From contig JAZNXS010000030.1 in assembly GCA_045594025.1 (NCBI GenBank), positions 3,230 to 67,229 on the forward strand: 64,000 nucleotides of DNA. The letters are read 5' to 3'. Below the pieces are notes generated by a model. That model saw nothing but the letters and a program-made list of their open reading frames with translations. It ran no database searches and was not told the origin of the DNA. This document shows, piece by piece, positions 39,965-55,968 of this stretch (position 1 is its first letter; each line of letters begins with the position of its first letter). Source of the DNA: Candidatus Scatosoma sp. Lineage in GTDB: Bacteria; Bacillota; Clostridia; Christensenellales; Borkfalkiaceae. Position numbers and translations under genes: made by a program.

Positions 39965-40215
39965 CGTTTAAAAAACGCCGTTACGAAAGAGACGAAGAAT
40001 ACTCCGCGGTACCACTCTATTTGATGCAAACGCACCCACTCGCGCCCCAAAAGGCATTCTCTGTAACGGGAGATCCCGTCCGAATCTAATAAGCAATTTC
40101 TTGCCGTTCTCTCGGCGGCTCGGGGAGGAGTATATTCCGTAGCGTTCTATCGACTCGCACCCACCGTCGACTCTCTGCAAAGCAACCCTTACGGATTTTG
40201 TTCCCGTCATAGCCT
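39965..40215 (-). promoter_or_regulatory. T-box riboswitch leader upstream of leuA (probably Leu-specific)
   Basis: The minus strand contains the T-box core AGAGTGGTACCGCGGAG (plus coordinates about 40002-40018). The stem I elements AGAGAG and GGTGGGTGCGA are present. CUC codons lie in the candidate specifier region (GAAUAUACUCCUCC). A U-run follows (CGGCGTTTTTT). Confidence 0.75.
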
Positions 40216-40225
40216 TTTATATAAA

Positions 40226-49085: not shown

Positions 49086-52031
49086 TTATAATTGATCGAT
49101 GATATGTTTAAACTCAAAATTATTCTCTATCATTCTTTCAAACAGCTCGATACCGATTTGCGTCTTCATTTCGTTTTTCTTGCTCTTCCACTGAGACGCT
49201 TCTTCCTGTGTGAACGTGTATTTTGCGGAAGCATAATACTCGAAGAAGGTATATACCGTCTGCAAAACATTGACGTCGTGCGCAATTTTCGCATTGATAT
49301 TGTTGCTGTTATAGTATCCCGTCCAAACGTTATAATAATACGTGAGGTTGGCAATATTCGGATACGTGCCTTTTAAGAAGAGCTTTCTCATAAAATGATT
49401 TTGCTCGGCAGGATCCATATCCTCAGAGACCATTTTCGCCCCCTGGCTTCTGTTTTGAACCTGCGCCATGTCATGAATCAACAGCATATCCAAAATTTCT
49501 TTTTTGTTATAGCCTTCCGCCGCCATTTCTTCCGGCAGGAAGAGCATCGCCAAGAGCCAAGAGCTAAACATGTGCTCTGAAACGCTTTCCGGTACGTCTA
49601 CCGTATCAATCCATTGCGTCCGTTTAATCTGCCTTAAAACGTTGCACTGATTGTACAGCATCGGGCCGATGTCAAGCCCTCCGTCAGCAAGGAAACGTAA
49701 GAAGTCCTCTTTGACGCTCTCGAAATAATAAAGAATTTTAGAGGATACGATATTGTGCGGCTTTTGTTGATACGTTTCCAAATAACGCACTGCATTTTTG
49801 ACGTAGGTTTGAATGTCAAAGTTAGGCTTTATCACCTTACTTTGAATACGGGTTTGCAATAAGGTAAGCAACGTAACTAGATTGTTCTCTACAAACTTAT
49901 CCCTATTGTTCTCCAACGACGCTTCCACTCTGGCCTCCAACGCCTTGATTGCGCCCTCGCCAAAATTCGGGTTCGTGTCCAGATAGTAGGTGTTATGCGC
50001 CCCCATTTGGTACTGTTCGCTGTAATATTCCACCGTTGCGCCACGGTTTACGGCGTTTGCAATATCGTTGGTGATGACAATACACAAGTATTCGTCCATC
50101 ATGTTGGCTTGGCCGTGGAATAACATACCCGTACAAACCGCGCGGAACAATAAATGCTTATCTAAATTATCCTGCGTGTTCTTGTTGTTGGTTTTCACCG
50201 CAGACTTTAACTTTGTAAACTCCCCTGTTAAGAAGGAAAGGGCATAGTTGACCATCTCCTTGCTGTAATTGATTCTACCAAGCCAAAAGGCTGCGTTCGC
50301 TTTTTGACGAACGTCAAACACCTCATATTTATCGTCGATAAAGGCGATGAATTTCTCCTGCAATTCATAGTTATCTTGTAACATTGCCACTACAAACTGG
50401 TTTGCCGTCGCCGTCAGCATAACTTTGAAGAAATCATAGTTATTCAACGTCTTATAATTTTCGATTTGATAAACGAAATAATACGCAATCAAATACCCTA
50501 AGTAAGTATGATGTTTGTTGGGGAAAGACCACACTTTGCCATCGTAAGCATTATCGATACAGCCGTCACCGCCGCTAAATAAATATTCAAACAGCGTTTT
50601 GGATACCTGCAATAGTCTTTCTTCTTCCAAATATTCCGTCAAAACGAACTTTTCATACATGTCGCTGAGGCAAATATCCGTATCGTAGCTGGTGGCAATT
50701 TCCCTTGCAATGAGCCTGATTAAGAATATATCCACAGAGGGATATTTTAACTTCTTTAACAGGTCGTACACCGTCTCGCAAGCCGCGCTTTCCCCATACA
50801 TTTTTAACACGCTGCGAATCACTTTCGTGATTTTTTGTTTTTGTTCGATAGGGATAGAATGGAATAATAATAAATATCCGCCGCGCATTTCCCCCGCGAT
50901 AGGAATTACCTTCTTTAAGCGTATGCGGTTTTGAATCAAACCCGTATCGATCGCCACTGCTCTATTGTAGCGTTCGAAGGGCTTAAACAGCATATAAATG
51001 ATTTTTTCGGGACTCAGACGGGTAACAACGTACTCTCTTACCCCTTCCAGCAAAAGAACGGGTTTTACTTCTTTGTTTTGCTTAACGTACTGGAAAAATT
51101 CCGCCGTGTCCTCCGAAATCAATTCCTGCATTTCGGATTCCGCATCGTTATAATCAAACTTTTCATAATACCCGATGGACAGGTATATCGGTAAAACGTC
51201 GCTTTCGTTTTTCTCGAAGCGATCCAGCATTTTAAAAAACGCCAGCTGTAATAACATGTTTTTCGCGCTGCCGGGCAACCCCTGCACACGGACGATATTA
51301 TGCTCTTTTGCCGATAAAGCGTCTACCAATAAACGGACGTAATCCGTATCTTGCGAAAGCAGTTCATCCTTGTTATAACCACTCACCGTTTCCGAGAATA
51401 ACACGTTGGCTTCTTTTACAAAGCTATTATACGACTCCTCGCCGTCTACGCGGTCGAATAAGCTGTACGCAAATTTCGAGGAAAGCATCTTCAGTTTCCA
51501 TACGATTGCCTTTCTCGTTAGATTATCTTCTATAACCGCCTTTGCCTTGACGGAAGCCTCTTCTGTCTTTTTTATAATGGGTCTGGGAATGCTCCGCAGC
51601 GTATCTGCGCGCGGAATTTCTTTGCCCTTTGCACCCAGAATGCTCATAATGGTCGAGCGCAGTTTTTCCAGCCCTTCTGCAAAATCGTGATACGCGTCAA
51701 TCCAGTGCTTTCTTCCTAAGTAATACAAAAAGCCGTTGGAAAATTTCACGTTTTCGATTTTGAACGCGATGATGGGTTTTTCGCAATCGAACGCGATTGC
51801 CAGCTCGTTGCTGACGTGGTTAGATTCGTTGGTGTCTTCGGAAGCAACCAACACGAACGCATCGCAATTTTTAATTCCTTCCACAATTTCTGTAGGATAA
51901 TCCTTTCCGGGAGAAATACTGTACGGCGCCATCCAACACCCGATTCCGCTTCTTTGCAGAAATTGATATACGGCGTCTGCGCTTTCTATGTTGTTAGAAG
52001 TATAGCTGATAAAAATCGAATTTGCGTTCAT
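49086..52031 (-). CDS. TIR domain - degenerate P-loop (STAND/NACHT-like) - HD phosphohydrolase fusion protein
   Basis: The start is ATG 52031, with an SD AGGAG 9 nt upstream. GTG 52064 is the long-ORF alternative. TIR-like N-terminus: SIFISY, GCWMAP, CDAFVLVASEDTNESNHVSNELAIA. Central region: VRVQGLPGSAKN and KPVLLLEGVRE. C-terminal HD motif: ESVSEHMFSSWLLA...LLIHDMAQV. Confidence 0.7.
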   Translation of the reverse strand: MNANSIFISYTSNNIESADAVYQFLQRSGIGCWMAPYSISPGKDYPTEIVEGIKNCDAFVLVASEDTNESNHVSNELAIAFDCEKPIIAFKIENVKFSNGFLYYLGRKHWIDAYHDFAEGLEKLRSTIMSILGAKGKEIPRADTLRSIPRPIIKKTEEASVKAKAVIEDNLTRKAIVWKLKMLSSKFAYSLFDRVDGEESYNSFVKEANVLFSETVSGYNKDELLSQDTDYVRLLVDALSAKEHNIVRVQGLPGSAKNMLLQLAFFKMLDRFEKNESDVLPIYLSIGYYEKFDYNDAESEMQELISEDTAEFFQYVKQNKEVKPVLLLEGVREYVVTRLSPEKIIYMLFKPFERYNRAVAIDTGLIQNRIRLKKVIPIAGEMRGGYLLLFHSIPIEQKQKITKVIRSVLKMYGESAACETVYDLLKKLKYPSVDIFLIRLIAREIATSYDTDICLSDMYEKFVLTEYLEEERLLQVSKTLFEYLFSGGDGCIDNAYDGKVWSFPNKHHTYLGYLIAYYFVYQIENYKTLNNYDFFKVMLTATANQFVVAMLQDNYELQEKFIAFIDDKYEVFDVRQKANAAFWLGRINYSKEMVNYALSFLTGEFTKLKSAVKTNNKNTQDNLDKHLLFRAVCTGMLFHGQANMMDEYLCIVITNDIANAVNRGATVEYYSEQYQMGAHNTYYLDTNPNFGEGAIKALEARVEASLENNRDKFVENNLVTLLTLLQTRIQSKVIKPNFDIQTYVKNAVRYLETYQQKPHNIVSSKILYYFESVKEDFLRFLADGGLDIGPMLYNQCNVLRQIKRTQWIDTVDVPESVSEHMFSSWLLAMLFLPEEMAAEGYNKKEILDMLLIHDMAQVQNRSQGAKMVSEDMDPAEQNHFMRKLFLKGTYPNIANLTYYYNVWTGYYNSNNINAKIAHDVNVLQTVYTFFEYYASAKYTFTQEEASQWKSKKNEMKTQIGIELFERMIENNFEFKHIIDQL

Positions 52032-52067
52032 CTCATTTTTCTCCTGTGTAACCTGTCTTGTCACGCT

Positions 52068-53375
52068 TTAAAACCAAACGGTATACATAACGTACCCGGC
52101 GTTAAAAATAAACTCTTCGCCGAAAAAAGCCTCTTCCAAATCGTCGTAATATTCATCCACCCAAGCCAAAACTTCTTTTGCCGTTTCGTCGTTGGGATCT
52201 TCTTTCAGCATCAAGCCGAAATCGTTGGGGATAAAAGCGAACCAAGACTCGAATAACAAGCGCTTCGCTTCATAATCCATACCCGTCGAGTTGATCCCGC
52301 AACGCTCTAAGCGGATATCCTTCGCACCAAGCTTTTTCATGTAGCTGTAAATTTGTCTGCCCGATTTACGGAATCCGCCCAGCTTATTAAACTTGTAGAA
52401 AGACTGAAATTCTTTAAACAGATTGTTTTCATCAGGGTAAGCGAACACCAACGTGTCATCCACGTCGCGAATGAACGCTACTGCATTCGGGTTCATATAT
52501 TTCTTGATTTTTTTCAAAACTTTGAACGGAGATTCCAAATCCAAAATTGTCATAGTAAGATTGAGGAAATCAAAGCCCTTAATACCGCGCTCTTGCATGA
52601 CCCTCGGTAATACTTCGTCAATTTTATCCTTGGTTAAATCCATCAGATAAAACCGCATGTTGTCATGCTCTTCACAGAGTTTATTTCCCTCTTCAATCAT
52701 CTGTTGATCATAGGAGAAATATACGGCTTTGCCCACTTCCTTACGATCGAATCTTCTTATGGTAGAATCTGCGCTAAGCACATTAAAATCCAAAACGGCT
52801 ACGTTCTCGCGGCCCAAAAGCAGCTTATCGTAATACGGCTTTTCATAGCTATACAACAGCTCTTCTTCGTTGTGGATTCTTTCACATTCTACTGCGTCTT
52901 CGGGCATGTAGTATTGATTAACCTTTCTTTCCACTTCCACCTTTTCATTCTTCTCGTAGCGCTCTGTTTTCTCAATACCTAAAATAGGCACCAGCTGTTC
53001 GTAAAGGTGGTAAATACTCTGTTCCAAAGGCTCGCTTACGGCGTCGATCCAATGCAGACGCTTTACGTAATATTCCATGGCTTTGGAAAGAATTCCTTCG
53101 TCCACTTTGAACGGGATAATGGTGATTTCACCGTTTAAAATACGCTTGTACGCCATTTCCACTTCATTTAATACGTGCGGAGATTCCGACGAGTTGTGAT
53201 TGAGAATCAAAACGAAAACTTTGCATTTTTCAATCGCTTCCACGATAGACGTGGCGTAGTCGCCGTAAACGTCCCGAGGCGCATACCAACAACGCACCCC
53301 TCTCGTCTCTAATACAGAACAGATATTATCCGCGATCGATTTCGATTCGTGCTCGTAACTGATGAAAACGTCCAT
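52068..53375 (-). CDS. TIR domain - methyltransferase-fold-like fusion protein
   Basis: 435 aa with an SD AGGGAGA. TIR-like aa 1-135: VFISYEH, VRCWYAPRD, CKVFVLILNHNSSESPHVLNEVEMA. The C-terminal half resembles a class I methyltransferase fold with a degenerate SAM loop: VAVLDFNVLSADS and FDFLNLTMTILDLESPFKVLKKIKKYMNPNAVAFI. Confidence 0.65.
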   Translation of the reverse strand: MDVFISYEHESKSIADNICSVLETRGVRCWYAPRDVYGDYATSIVEAIEKCKVFVLILNHNSSESPHVLNEVEMAYKRILNGEITIIPFKVDEGILSKAMEYYVKRLHWIDAVSEPLEQSIYHLYEQLVPILGIEKTERYEKNEKVEVERKVNQYYMPEDAVECERIHNEEELLYSYEKPYYDKLLLGRENVAVLDFNVLSADSTIRRFDRKEVGKAVYFSYDQQMIEEGNKLCEEHDNMRFYLMDLTKDKIDEVLPRVMQERGIKGFDFLNLTMTILDLESPFKVLKKIKKYMNPNAVAFIRDVDDTLVFAYPDENNLFKEFQSFYKFNKLGGFRKSGRQIYSYMKKLGAKDIRLERCGINSTGMDYEAKRLLFESWFAFIPNDFGLMLKEDPNDETAKEVLAWVDEYYDDLEEAFFGEEFIFNAGYVMYTVWF

Positions 53376-54659: not shown

Positions 54660-54688
54660 TAAAAAGCACCCACAAAGGGTGCTTTTTG
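54660..54688 (-). terminator. Bidirectional rho-independent terminator after the ASCH gene
   Basis: AAAAAGCACCC acaa AGGGTGCTTTTT. Confidence 0.75.
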
Positions 54689-54690
54689 CT

Positions 54691-54701
54691 TTGGAGCAGG
54701 T
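54691..54701 (-). repeat. 11-nt direct repeat of the tRNA-Gly 3' end (att-like scar)
   Basis: ttggagcaggt at 54691-54701 is identical to 55779-55789, which covers the CCA end and the 3' acceptor stem of the tRNA. Confidence 0.5.
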
Positions 54702-54786
54702 AATAAAAGTTATATCATGTATAAAACCACGAGAATACTGCCCTCTATTTATTTCTTTTCTCATTAAGTAACTCTCTTACAGTGAT

Positions 54787-55131
54787 TTATTTAAGCCTGA
54801 TTTCAATTCCGACAACACCATAGCATTTTTGCTTTTCCAACGAATAATATGCTTCCATATCTTTGGCAGAGGATGTAGCAATTTCTTCGGGTAAGTAACC
54901 ACATTTATCTAATGGTAATATTTGATACAGTTCTTCAAAATTTGCAAAAATATGTAGTTTCTCAACCACGCAAGAAATTGTAGAATTCGCATCTTTGGTG
55001 TTTGTAAAAATCAATGTGTCACCGATTGAAATTAATTGCCTTTTTTCATCAAACAACCGTAGCTCTATGGTCTTATTACCGTTTGCTATCATTGAAAACG
55101 GTTGTGGGTGAAGCTTCATATAATGTGTCAT
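54787..55131 (-). CDS. ASCH domain protein
   Basis: 114 aa. The N-terminal pattern MKLHPQPFSMIANGNKTIELRLFDEKRQLISIGDTLIF is typical of ASCH. Confidence 0.7.
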   Translation of the reverse strand: MTHYMKLHPQPFSMIANGNKTIELRLFDEKRQLISIGDTLIFTNTKDANSTISCVVEKLHIFANFEELYQILPLDKCGYLPEEIATSSAKDMEAYYSLEKQKCYGVVGIEIRLK

Positions 55132-55133
55132 TG

Positions 55134-55481
55134 TTATTTAGATTCCTTTTTCAGCGTTTTACAACTAGCAATTAGCATTCGTCTAATTCGACCGCAAAGA
55201 TTGCGATAGGTTTTAAAAGTTTCTTCGTCTATGGCGTTAGTGTTAAATAACAGTTTGAGCCAACCTTCGGTTTCGTTACATTCTTTGAGTGCTATTTCAA
55301 ATTTCGATATCATATCTGATTTGCTTTGCCCGTAATTTGCTTCGCGTATATTTGCATAAATACTGCTTGAACTTTTCCGTATTTGGAATATAGTGTTTGA
55401 AGAAGCTTTTATATTCTGACAAAGCAATTCGATTTCAGACGCAAGTTGCTCGGAGTATATCAACAAGTAATTCTTTGGCAT
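55134..55481 (-). CDS. Four-helix-bundle protein (23S rRNA intervening-sequence protein family-like)
   Basis: 115 aa. IRKSSSSIYANIREANYGQSKSDMISKFEIALKECNETEGWLKLL matches the family pattern by eye. Confidence 0.65.
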   Translation of the reverse strand: MPKNYLLIYSEQLASEIELLCQNIKASSNTIFQIRKSSSSIYANIREANYGQSKSDMISKFEIALKECNETEGWLKLLFNTNAIDEETFKTYRNLCGRIRRMLIASCKTLKKESK

Positions 55482-55552
55482 AATATCACCTCTTTATTTC
55501 ATTATACCATAACTACATAAATAAAACAAGAGCTTTTCCCATTTCTGCGTCC

Positions 55553-55736
55553 TCATCACGCCATAGGCGTGTATATCATCAAGGCGCAAGCCTTGTATAT
55601 CACCAACACAAAGTGTTGTATATCATCAAGGCGCAGATAGATACACGCTGATGCGTGATGATATACAGCTCCAAAGGAGCTGATGATATCCACCACACTT
55701 CGTGCGGTGATGATATACCAAGTCTGCGACTTGGAT
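55553..55736. repeat. Hairpin-ladder repeat, GTATATCATCA family
   Basis: GTATATCA(T/C)CA occurs at 55571, 55595 and 55618. The inverted TGATGATAT(A/C)C occurs at 55656, 55681 and 55708. Seven perfect mini-hairpins lie between them (CACGCCataGGCGTG, AAGGCgcaaGCCTT, AACACaaaGTGTT, CACGCtgatGCGTG, AGCTCCaaaGGAGCT, CACCaCACttcGTGcGGTG, CCAAGTCtgcGACTTGG). Confidence 0.75.
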
Positions 55737-55779
55737 AAAAAAATACTGCAGAAAATGTGTCCTTTTCTGCAGTATTTTT
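55733..55779 (-). terminator. Rho-independent terminator downstream of tRNA-Gly
   Basis: 15-bp stem AAATACTGCAGAAAA / TTTTCTGCAGTATTT flanked by A/T runs on both sides. Confidence 0.8.
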
Positions 55780-55854
55780 TGGAGCAGGTGACGAGAGTCG
55801 AACTCGCCGGGAACAGCTTGGGAAGCTGCCGCCATACCGCTAGGCGACACCTGC
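55780..55854 (-). tRNA. tRNA-Gly (anticodon CCC), CCA encoded
   Basis: The reverse complement is GCAGGTGTCGCCTAGCGGTATGGCGGCAGCTTCCCAAGCTGTTCCCGGCGAGTTCGACTCTCGTCACCTGCTCCA, which I folded into a cloverleaf by hand. Features: 7-bp acceptor stem, anticodon loop TTCCCAA, T-loop TTCGACT. Confidence 0.9.
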
Positions 55855-55968
55855 ATTTCAATCTTTACTTTCTTATTATATCCCTTTTAAAAGAAATTGT
55901 CAATCCTTTTTTGCTCTTCCTAAAAAATTTCTTTCATAATATGAAAAACGGGCGCTTTCGCCCGTCAA

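Follow-up and report, generated by a model that had tools for sequence, protein, structure and literature searches.

We analysed a 64-kb stretch of DNA from Candidatus Scatosoma sp. (hereafter the window; all window coordinates count from its first letter) and, within it, an array of small hairpins and short repeats at 55553-55736 that we call the hairpin ladder. Comparison with its relatives shows that the ladder is the conserved non-coding head of recombinase-less cassettes inserted exactly at the 3′ ends of transfer RNA (tRNA) and transfer-messenger RNA (tmRNA) genes in Oscillospirales. We consider it highly probable that the tRNA-end cassettes headed in this way are mobile. In our judgement the chances are about even that the ladder is a cis-acting DNA site, similar to the arms of an att site or to attC, through which a recombinase encoded elsewhere moves the cassettes, and here we infer both the enzyme and the mechanism. 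A more tentative proposal, to which we give somewhat less than an even chance, is that recombination or mobilisation takes place at the ladder itself. A previous interpretation of the same DNA, made from its letters only (hereafter the sequence-only reading), had overlooked that one insertion of 1,088 bp at a tRNA 3′ end comprises the ladder together with the four-helix-bundle gene and the gene after it.

The inserted cassette occupies 54692-55779 (- strand) and consists of its own terminator, the ladder, a promoter, the four-helix-bundle gene, an ASCH gene and a repeat of the tRNA 3′ end. The insertion target is the tRNA-Gly(CCC) gene at 55780-55854 (- strand; called by ARAGORN, with a Rfam tRNA score of 51 bits). 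In the direct-repeat analysis the last 10 nt of this gene, ACCTGCTCCA (left copy, 55789-55780, - strand), were found again at 54701-54692 (- strand), where the right copy forms a pseudo tRNA-Gly 3′ end. Beyond the right copy, and hence outside the element, lies the native tRNA-Gly terminator, AAGCAAAAAGCACCC-TTTG-TGGGTGCTTTTT (54661-54691, - strand), displaced by the insertion. The empty site is seen in L126 and L127 (locus names of this form denote the individual relative loci collected in the analysis), which come from a related species and share with the window the gene order SpoIIR-SleB-YpeB-Fur-tRNA-Gly: there, the same native terminator hairpin directly follows tRNA-Gly. An exact search for the Fur protein of the window gave no record. 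The ACCTGCTCCA repeat, the displaced native terminator and the empty site together delimit 54692-55779 as the insertion. After excision the empty window site would be predicted to read tRNA-Gly ...CTGCTCCA joined to AAGCAAAAAGCACCC, and the excised circle would carry the junction ...TTATTACCTGCTCCA joined to AAAAATACTGCAGAAAA.

As a separate observation, the stretch L126 4060-4710, syntenic to 54690-55780, has no ladder behind tRNA-Gly(CCC). Past the native terminator it has a further tRNA-Gly 3′ end, which is decayed (..CTCGTCCTGCTCCA), then one more terminator and a four-helix-bundle gene that differs from the one in the window. Judged by this layout, the region resembles an islet without a ladder at the same hotspot.

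Relatives were collected with an exact pattern of two adjacent units in a one-genome-per-species collection, which gave at least 120 loci; the family counts given below rest on these listed loci together with metagenome loci. Overall, the species collection and the metagenome loci contain at least 137 distinct arrays, at least 76 of which have exactly three direct units followed by three inverted ones (>>><<<, or 3+3), with typical unit spacings of ~23/24/38/23/25. The concern of the sequence-only reading that the element could be unique to this genome and without homologs is clearly dispelled by these numbers. Among the matches listed, which represent ~100 different assemblies, all but three loci are Clostridia metagenome-assembled genomes (MAGs), labelled Acutalibacteraceae, Oscillospiraceae, Ruminococcus, Eubacteriales and similar, and the ladder-bearing arrays are almost all from Oscillospirales gut genomes.

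The position of the arrays is equally regular. On the tRNA strand, the CCA of the tRNA or tmRNA is followed, in conserved order, by a terminator composed of an A-run, a hairpin and a T-run, then by ATCC, the ladder and TTGATT. A called tRNA or tmRNA gene precedes, on the same strand, 62 of the 105 distinct arrays, with the first unit 48-64 nt past the tRNA end in every case except one (99 nt), and the A-run begins at the tRNA end in 57 of these 62. A further 28 of the 105 follow a CA/A-run pseudo-end (the slash marks the junction) without a called tRNA, and many of these pseudo-ends resemble decayed tRNA ends. The targets include 22 different anticodons, and one and the same terminator type is found in the window (Gly-CCC), in L097 (Arg-ACG) and in L110 (Glu-CTC). 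The commonest terminator type, (T/C)CGACAAGTTTCGACTTGTCG(A/G), contains TGTCGAA and its complement (L005, L020, L022, L024, L039 and others). TGTCGAA is the Spo0A-box consensus known from Bacillus, and its presence in the cassette terminators of these spore-formers may be a coincidence.

Direct repeats of the tRNA 3′ end, 10-34 nt in length, bound elements of 245 bp to 2.6 kb. Repeats of 12-34 nt, running from the T-loop to CCA, were found in L022, L040, L042, L044, L163 and L190; repeats of 19, 21, 34, 12 and 21 nt bound elements of 1,112, 245, 1,647, 2,194 and 1,208 bp, respectively. The smallest of them (L040, 245 bp) consists of terminator and ladder alone. A sister cassette of 1.09 kb from human-gut metagenomes is 98.6-99.5% identical in L160, L162, L163, L164, L166 and L190, and has a 92% variant in L171 and L172. 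It was found at five different sites (two kinds of tRNA-Gln, two kinds of tRNA-Met and one pseudo-end) whose flanks all differ, and its junctions are exact: CCA/AAAAATCAAGC... on the left (CCA/AAAAA) and ...CTCTACTCA/AAA... on the right (ACTCA/AAA). Near identity, exact junctions and differing flanks show recent movement; excision of this cassette would be predicted to give a circle with the junction ...GGCACCTCTACTCA joined to AAAAATCAAGCAACC. At several loci, two or three cassettes lie in tandem behind one tRNA cluster. Some cassettes lack cargo and others contain the four-helix-bundle gene and one variable gene, among other contents, with cargo that includes helix-turn-helix (HTH), MerR, hydrolase, membrane and lipoprotein genes.

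Sequences after the ladder fall into two classes. In class 1 the ladder's own TTGATT is the -35 of a promoter, followed by 17 nt, TGnTATAAT, a conserved ribosome-binding site and, downstream, genes that are unrelated to one another; in class 2 a short tail resembles a tRNA T-arm. The class-2 tail, 10-70 nt past the ladder (L005, L014, L041, L092, L093, L101 and others), is a T-arm-like GTTCAAGTCC hairpin followed by AAAA..ATATCTTTTTT, and these cassettes are without promoter or cargo. We also considered ATATCTTTTT as a universal right-end motif and rejected it; it is present in 1 of 26 pseudo-ends and conserved in one subclass only.

Cassettes of this kind recall cis-mobilizable elements (CIMEs), i.e. 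elements that lost their integration and transfer genes, keep attL and attR, and form tandem accretions (PMC6323972). The shared features are direct repeats of the tRNA 3′ end, the absence of integration or transfer genes inside, tandem copies and empty sites in relatives. The cassettes differ in being much smaller (245 bp to ~2.6 kb) and in having one elaborate head, composed of terminator and ladder, in ~100 species and at more than 22 tRNA types. They also differ in that neither a related full-size parent element nor an integrase was found for them; no parent autonomous element was seen in the loci, viral contigs, phages or plasmids examined.

The ladder itself, assigned to neither strand, consists of two convergent arms, each made of three repetitions of a mini-hairpin and a GTATATCATC linker. 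The left arm (55553-55628), whose sense strand is the + strand, starts with a partial unit, TCATCA, and continues with hairpin H0 (55557-55571), unit U1 (55571-55581), hairpin H1 (55582-55594, with a GCAA loop), U2 (55595-55605), H2 (55606-55617) and U3 (55618-55628). The right arm (55641-55736), with the - strand as sense, reads ATCC, the terminal hairpin T (55718-55734), a unit at 55708-55718, H5 (55693-55707), a unit at 55681-55691, H4 (55667-55680), a unit at 55656-55666, Hc (55644-55657) and a truncated unit, TGTAT. Between them, the centre segment C (CAAGGCGCAGA, 55627-55637, + strand) complements, with one mismatch in the window copy, the loop and 3′ arm of the terminal hairpin (55723-55733).

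Most of this anatomy had already been read correctly from the letters. Three direct units GTATATCA(T/C)CA (starting at 55571, 55595 and 55618 on the + strand) and three reverse-complement units (at 55656, 55681 and 55708) are present as described, the outer and inner pairs being fully complementary and the middle pair matching at 9 of 11 positions, and the GCAA loop was found in H1. The recurrence is far beyond chance: allowing at most one mismatch, we counted 10 occurrences of the 11-mer in the window where 0.58 were expected, and 0 of 100 shuffles reached 10; six of these ten occurrences are in the ladder, which is the only ladder in the window. Every gap does hold a hairpin, as had been claimed, whereas the count of seven perfect ones has to be lowered to six, since H5 (CCACAC-TTC-GTGCGG) carries one A.C mismatch.

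Folding energies of the ladder lie well below those of shuffled sequences, both as RNA (z = -6.9 and -6.3) and as DNA (z = -7.9 and -8.2). When DNA parameters are used, each strand has exactly a three-rung ladder with side hairpins as its minimum-energy fold, and to this extent the previously proposed stack of 11-bp helices is borne out by computation. Selection for the rungs is a different matter. Across 52 distinct canonical elements the 11-nt units are nearly invariant; where they vary (at unit position 5, for example, A is replaced by C in the third unit of 22 of the 52 elements), we counted 4 compensated cells between the arms, against 8.9 expected from shuffling. Rung covariation was thus tested for and is absent, single arms occur alone, and rungs can still pair in ~94% of cells. 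Units that vary without compensation between arms are conserved as sequence, not as pairing. The ladder fold remains possible as a predicted structure, while the comparative data point to selection on unit sequence rather than on rungs.

The mini-hairpins behave in the opposite way. In 169 distinct mini-hairpins, 849 of the 864 stem pairs are Watson-Crick; the rest are 9 G.T and 6 A.C pairs, and neither strand is favoured. Natural stems are almost as long as they could be, and chimeric halves taken from different elements pair far less. Covarying stems of near-maximal length indicate that the hairpins are maintained, yet without the wobble pairs or the strand bias expected of RNA. The earlier proposal of selection on structure therefore holds for the mini-hairpins and is not supported for the units. 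Covariation also links the last base of a unit to the base preceding the next one, from which it follows that the true constant linker is the 10-nt GTATATCATC. A choice of strand by G.U bias was also attempted, and no bias was seen.

Loop sequences give each arm a polarity. Read on the strand on which the adjacent units are GTATATCATCA, loops of the type C(G..A)G number 80, against 3 of the complementary type, and this holds in both arms; C(GNA)G is a classic, very stable DNA mini-hairpin. Each arm is therefore polar: its sense strand points, 5′ to 3′, to the centre, so that the two arms of the ladder converge. The scarcity of wobble pairs, the absence of strand bias and the sense-strand G..A loops in both arms argue, as far as sequence comparison can tell, for DNA rather than RNA as the folding molecule.

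The same data bear on the possibility that the region is transcribed into a structured non-coding RNA, either as a stack of 11-bp helices with four-way junctions or as hairpins with single-stranded protein-binding linkers. The strong RNA folding z-scores, the covariation of the hairpins and the frequent GNRA-type loops among them speak for such an RNA, and the bidirectional terminator could end a plus-strand transcript. The near lack of G.U wobble (9 G.T against 6 A.C in 864 pairs), the missing strand bias and the rungs that do not covary speak against it. GNA/GNRA loops, moreover, lie on opposite strands in the two arms, so that no single transcript holds all of them. No conserved promoter leads into the ladder, a strong terminator stands ahead of it on the tRNA strand, and the flanking promoter faces away. 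In Rfam, at the gathering threshold, only the tRNA and a T-box leader passed in the window; the ladder was unmatched, and in a permissive scan of 55300-55950 the best non-tRNA matches over the ladder did not exceed 20.4 bits, against thresholds of 40-88. We therefore regard a structured RNA as improbable, and the RNA reading proposed initially, placed as the ladder is between a strong terminator and an outward-facing promoter, has nothing in its favour with respect to G.U bias or position.

A second, longer-range pairing was found between the centre and the terminal hairpin. In 54 elements the centre complements the loop and one arm of that hairpin in an exact run that averages 10.0, compared with 6.0 when partners are shuffled. 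This pairing, seen in at least 8 covarying sequence types, spans ~90 nt and crosses the rungs. In all canonical elements the two segments (in the window, 55627-55637 and 55723-55733) form 11-bp inverted repeats flanking the right arm. Inversion between these repeats would convert >>><<< into a seamless six-unit direct array with a complete central hairpin, and all-direct arrays do exist (e.g. L048 2134-2307). In L164 (2245-2280) and L162 (2246-2281), the terminators of otherwise identical cassettes differ solely by an inverted loop (CCTTTTGG and CCAAAAGG, respectively), which, going by these two sequences, is a hairpin-loop flip of the kind typical of template switching at palindromes.

The module of a variable hairpin and a conserved linker also suggests a selfish repeat resembling repetitive extragenic palindromic sequences (REPs) or bacterial interspersed mosaic elements (BIMEs), in which the hairpin and the single-stranded linker would be the substrate of an HUH enzyme encoded once per genome (RAYT or IS200/IS605-like), and the arrays would duplicate and hitch-hike between genes. 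HUH enzymes recognise DNA by a hairpin beside a short conserved single-stranded sequence, and the ladder module fits such recognition. Its loops are of DNA type, and arrays grow by tandem duplication of 22-25-nt modules, the longest having 12+4 units (L064) and 9 units (L030); one-arm arrays are seen in L008, L095, L035, L072 and L032, and many arrays are at contig ends, as multi-copy repeats would be. Like REP, BIME and BOX elements, the ladder is short, modular, palindromic, intergenic and variable in module number, and it lies near terminators.

The differences, however, are substantial. REPs conserve the palindrome, with a 5′ tetranucleotide, while the ladder family has 169 distinct palindromes and its constant part is a linear, unpaired 10-nt linker. 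The insertion is strictly at tRNA 3′ ends with direct repeats and not scattered, the window holds a single ladder, and no Y1, HUH or RAYT gene was noticed in the 423 neighbouring open reading frames (ORFs), of which cluster representatives were scanned, the search being of ladder neighbourhoods and not of whole genomes. A selfish repeat of this type is in our view a poor candidate, about as improbable as the structured RNA. The statement that the ladder belongs to no named family stands for Rfam, where it is unmatched, and for REP and BIME, whose sequence feature it lacks; BOX was compared by description, and the sequences of BOX and of the enterobacterial repetitive intergenic consensus (ERIC) stayed outside the comparison. 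Beside a normal array, L028 (2050-2140, reverse strand) also has hairpin-separated modules with another linker, GTATGGAATC, which suggests, on sequence grounds, that sister families with different linkers exist.

The terminator and the promoter that enclose the ladder raise the question of a regulatory role. The element-borne terminator (55737-55779, bidirectional) starts with an A-run straight after the tRNA CCA and continues with an 18-bp perfect inverted repeat (TACTGCAGAAAA core) and a T-run, after which comes ATCC. The ladder had been placed between the tRNA-Gly terminator and the four-helix-bundle gene; it does lie between that gene and a terminator behind tRNA-Gly(CCC), but the hairpin at 55738-55780 is the terminator of the element and not that of the tRNA. 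On the other side, the outward promoter (55501-55529, - strand), read from the sequence, has TTGTTT, 17 nt and TATAAT preceded by TG. It is missing from the consensus scan listing and its -35 matches at only 3 of 6 positions. The conserved ribosome-binding site GGTGAT of many cassettes looks like the inverted unit TGATGAT.

In this setting the ladder could be a transcriptional boundary and the control region of the cassette promoter, with mobility due to the tRNA-like ends only. The six units would be operators for the four-helix-bundle protein as autoregulator or for a host factor, and the hairpin arrays would stop or destabilise transcripts coming from both sides. Such an insulator or operator would account for the constant position of the ladder between the bidirectional terminator and an outward promoter whose -35 the ladder supplies, for the sense strand that each arm shows to polymerases arriving from its own side, and for units conserved as sequence in both orientations; the tight link to the four-helix-bundle gene (33 of 37 loci, see below) and L160, which lost the ladder and keeps the promoter and that gene, agree with it as well. 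Against this, intra-arm unit spacing of 19-31 bp without helical phasing is poor for cooperative binding to a duplex, and argues for hairpins that are folded out rather than for rigid duplex DNA. Binding to double-stranded DNA also leaves both the hairpin covariation and the pairing of centre and terminal hairpin unexplained. Minimal 245-bp elements have the ladder without promoter or cargo, and most ladders are without a nearby four-helix-bundle gene. On balance we consider this explanation unlikely, though clearly less so than the structured RNA or the selfish repeat.

The four-helix-bundle gene (55134-55481, - strand; PF05635/TIGR02436) was identified by profile matches. Its protein matches PF05635 with E = 1e-19 (71.2 bits, cut-off 33.8), TIGR02436 with E = 2e-21 (76.2 bits, cut-off 24) and PDB entry 2RLD with E = 1.8e-16, and by these matches it is assigned to the family of 23S ribosomal RNA (rRNA) intervening-sequence (IVS) proteins and Avd. 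For relatives of at least 62% identity, a ladder lies at most 250 nt upstream in 33 of 37 evaluable loci, and only ~1/6 of the ladder loci have the gene, a pattern that recalls a master copy among non-autonomous copies. The gene behind it, often translationally coupled, differs in almost every related cassette; in the window it is the variable cargo gene for the ASCH-domain protein (54787-55131, - strand; PF04266).

Proteins of the same PF05635 family are encoded in 23S rRNA IVSs and, as Avd, in diversity-generating retroelements, where the gene likewise lies beside a stable-RNA gene and a long hairpin-forming sequence. The ladder element differs from them in being outside rRNA, in lacking a reverse transcriptase and template or variable repeats, and in having its hairpins wholly upstream of the gene and not flanking it. 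We know of no catalytic activity of the four-helix-bundle protein and, to our knowledge, IVS/Avd-like proteins have no established role outside diversity-generating retroelements. The ribosome-binding site and start region of the gene (GGTGATATTATG, 55483-55490) has ATATCACC in common with the variant unit U2 (55597-55604).

Viral, phage and plasmid collections were also scanned. No ladder architecture was found in IMG/VR viral contigs, where the matches are simple tandem repeats, mostly from one giant-virus MAG, and BLAST against PLSDB plasmids and INPHARED phages gave no ladder match. In the IMG/VR matches (L130-L147, e.g. L133 20-135), from that MAG and a few other contigs, the 11-mer lies inside exact 21-, 30- or 12-nt tandem repeats; having neither hairpin spacers nor the ladder layout, these are unrelated to the ladder. 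On these scans we rejected a phage or plasmid origin of the ladder.

These scans bear also on the idea that the ladder is the replication origin of an excised cassette, either iteron-type or single-strand, in which a TTATCCA resembling a DnaA box would be followed by three direct repeats, a centre rich in A and T and three inverted repeats that overlap the first gene's promoter. A comparable layout is known from iteron plasmid origins whose rep promoters are autoregulated; TTATCC is conserved at the ladder edge, and the strong fold as single-stranded DNA is like that of single-strand origins in rolling-circle replicons. The cassettes, however, contain no gene for an initiator or Rep protein, a 115-aa four-helix bundle is not an initiator known to us, and most ladders are without even that gene. 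The spacing is unphased, and the element was on no plasmid or phage in the IMG/VR, PLSDB and INPHARED scans. This is, of all the explanations weighed here, the one to which we give the smallest chance. From the sequence, we also set aside, as contradicted or unsupported, a CRISPR-like array, the RNA repeats of type III toxin-antitoxin systems, a DNA uptake sequence, Chi-like sites, a DnaA-trio, an anti-Shine-Dalgarno mimic and a Rho rut site.

We return to the reading that we prefer, i.e. that the ladder is a cis-acting site for mobilisation of the cassettes by an enzyme encoded elsewhere. In this model, the six linkers would be bound in a sequence-specific manner by a recombinase encoded elsewhere in the genome, possibly aided by the four-helix-bundle protein of the cassette. 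In a folded single strand, the hairpins would free linker spacing from spacer length, as in integron attC; alternatively, they would be architectural joints, as in phage attP arms. Recombination would join the cassette to the tRNA 3′ end, with the crossover in the block of identity from T-loop to CCA or at CA/AAAA, after which the terminator of the element would restore termination of the tRNA and its promoter would express the cargo.

The attP site of phages with lambda-type arms and heterobivalent tyrosine integrases directed at tRNA 3′ ends is the first natural comparison. In size the 245-bp minimal element is similar to mv4 attP, which is 234 bp long and has a 17-bp core identical to tRNA-Ser (10.1101/2023.11.06.565760). 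In both cases, several sites of ~11 bp, direct and inverted, surround a core that copies a tRNA end, and the element brings a replacement terminator. A circular permutation of the 245-bp element fits the attP layout, with arm sites flanking an attB-identical core within ~240 bp, whereas cargo-bearing cassettes do not. The ladder differs in the variable hairpin palindromes between its sites, in the lack of an adjacent integrase (none with an arm-binding domain was found beside the ladder by Pfam or by tblastn with XerD) and, in cargo-bearing cassettes, in the placement of both arms to one side of the crossover. Related phages normally have different arm sites, while the ladder 11-mer is the same across many species and target tRNAs.

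With attC the ladder has in common an imperfect long palindrome, short conserved inverted motifs, filler that is variable yet always paired and unpaired bases at specific positions; its filler keeps pairing, and the fold as single-stranded DNA is a computed prediction. Like attC, it would act as folded single-stranded DNA, and it marks recombinase-less cassettes of one or two genes, diverse in function, that pile up in arrays. No GTTRRRY core sites of attC were found in the ladder, whose motif is GTATATCATCA / TGATGATATAC, and intI or attI was not adjacent: the arrays begin at tRNA or tmRNA genes. Unlike attC, the ladder lands at a tRNA 3′ end, sits at the cassette head, has 3+3 units with side hairpins, and belongs to cassettes with their own promoter and terminator. 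In a bolder version, which we judge unlikely, to about the same degree as the insulator or operator, the ladder is the attC-equivalent of an unrecognised integron-like system of gut Oscillospirales, with cassettes of one or two genes, all equipped with a terminator and a promoter of their own, captured at many tRNA and tmRNA 3′ ends. Capture would proceed via the folded single-stranded site (10-nt linkers and sequence-free hairpins) and a recombinase encoded elsewhere, the four-helix-bundle protein being an accessory factor borne by the cassette.

Several points weigh against a mobilisation site. The ladder has no recombinase, transposase or HUH enzyme as a consistent neighbour: none was found inside the cassettes by Pfam and tblastn, and the 423 neighbouring ORFs fall into 368 clusters whose representatives are, by Pfam, ordinary and unrelated genes. 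The proposed enzyme is accordingly hypothetical. A tyrosine recombinase was considered as partner and rejected; tblastn with XerD gave matches at only 3 of ~170 loci, in inconsistent positions. In cargo-bearing cassettes both arms are on one side of the junction, with the inner arm ~900 bp from the other end, which is a misfit with classical attP geometry. We know of no attP or attC with variable hairpins between binding sites. The excised circle was not observed, and no attP-like permutation was found in the phage and plasmid collections. Moreover, template-switch repair of quasi-palindromes, and not selection, may be what keeps the hairpins perfect, and the tRNA-like sequences at the ends might suffice for mobility, in which case the ladder would do something else, for example insulate or regulate the promoter beside it.

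Some other features were recorded. In L171, a tyrosine integrase and a ParA-like gene (1148-2176 and 274-1095) lie upstream of, and divergent from, a tRNA-Met carrying a truncated ladder cassette; judged by these neighbours, the tRNA-Met may itself be on another mobile element. In the window, a few genes beyond the cassette (49086-53375, - strand), two adjacent TIR genes code for a 992-aa TIR and HD-domain protein and a 435-aa TIR protein with a weak methyltransferase-like region, and by their domains look like candidates for anti-phage defence. The T-box leader is at 39985-40219 (- strand) and scores 100.5 bits, above the Rfam gathering score.

A literature search with the unit sequence gave only unrelated primer-type matches, and one on tRNA-downstream repeats and on mobility of IVS proteins gave nothing relevant. 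The architecture of the ladder, in which hairpins of free sequence alternate with an invariant 10-nt linker, the two arms converge and the centre pairs with the end, is undescribed in Rfam or in the searchable literature, and so is its conservation across ~100 species and more than 22 tRNA targets; tRNA-end islets and att sites themselves are known.

For the bacteria concerned, the cassettes are a recurrent source of strain variation, which places small cargo genes behind tRNA genes in Clostridia of gut and rumen (Acutalibacteraceae, Oscillospiraceae, Ruminococcus) that are abundant but little studied. The ladder can readily serve as a marker to find such cassettes and explains contig breaks in MAGs. 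It ties an orphan family of four-helix-bundle, IVS/Avd-like proteins to a defined DNA element, and represents a new site architecture, in which an invariant single-stranded linker alternates with hairpins of free sequence, mirrored in two arms. If the ladder is indeed a recombination site, it would represent a new way for a recombinase to read DNA, and could be developed into a compact tool that accepts many different tRNA ends.

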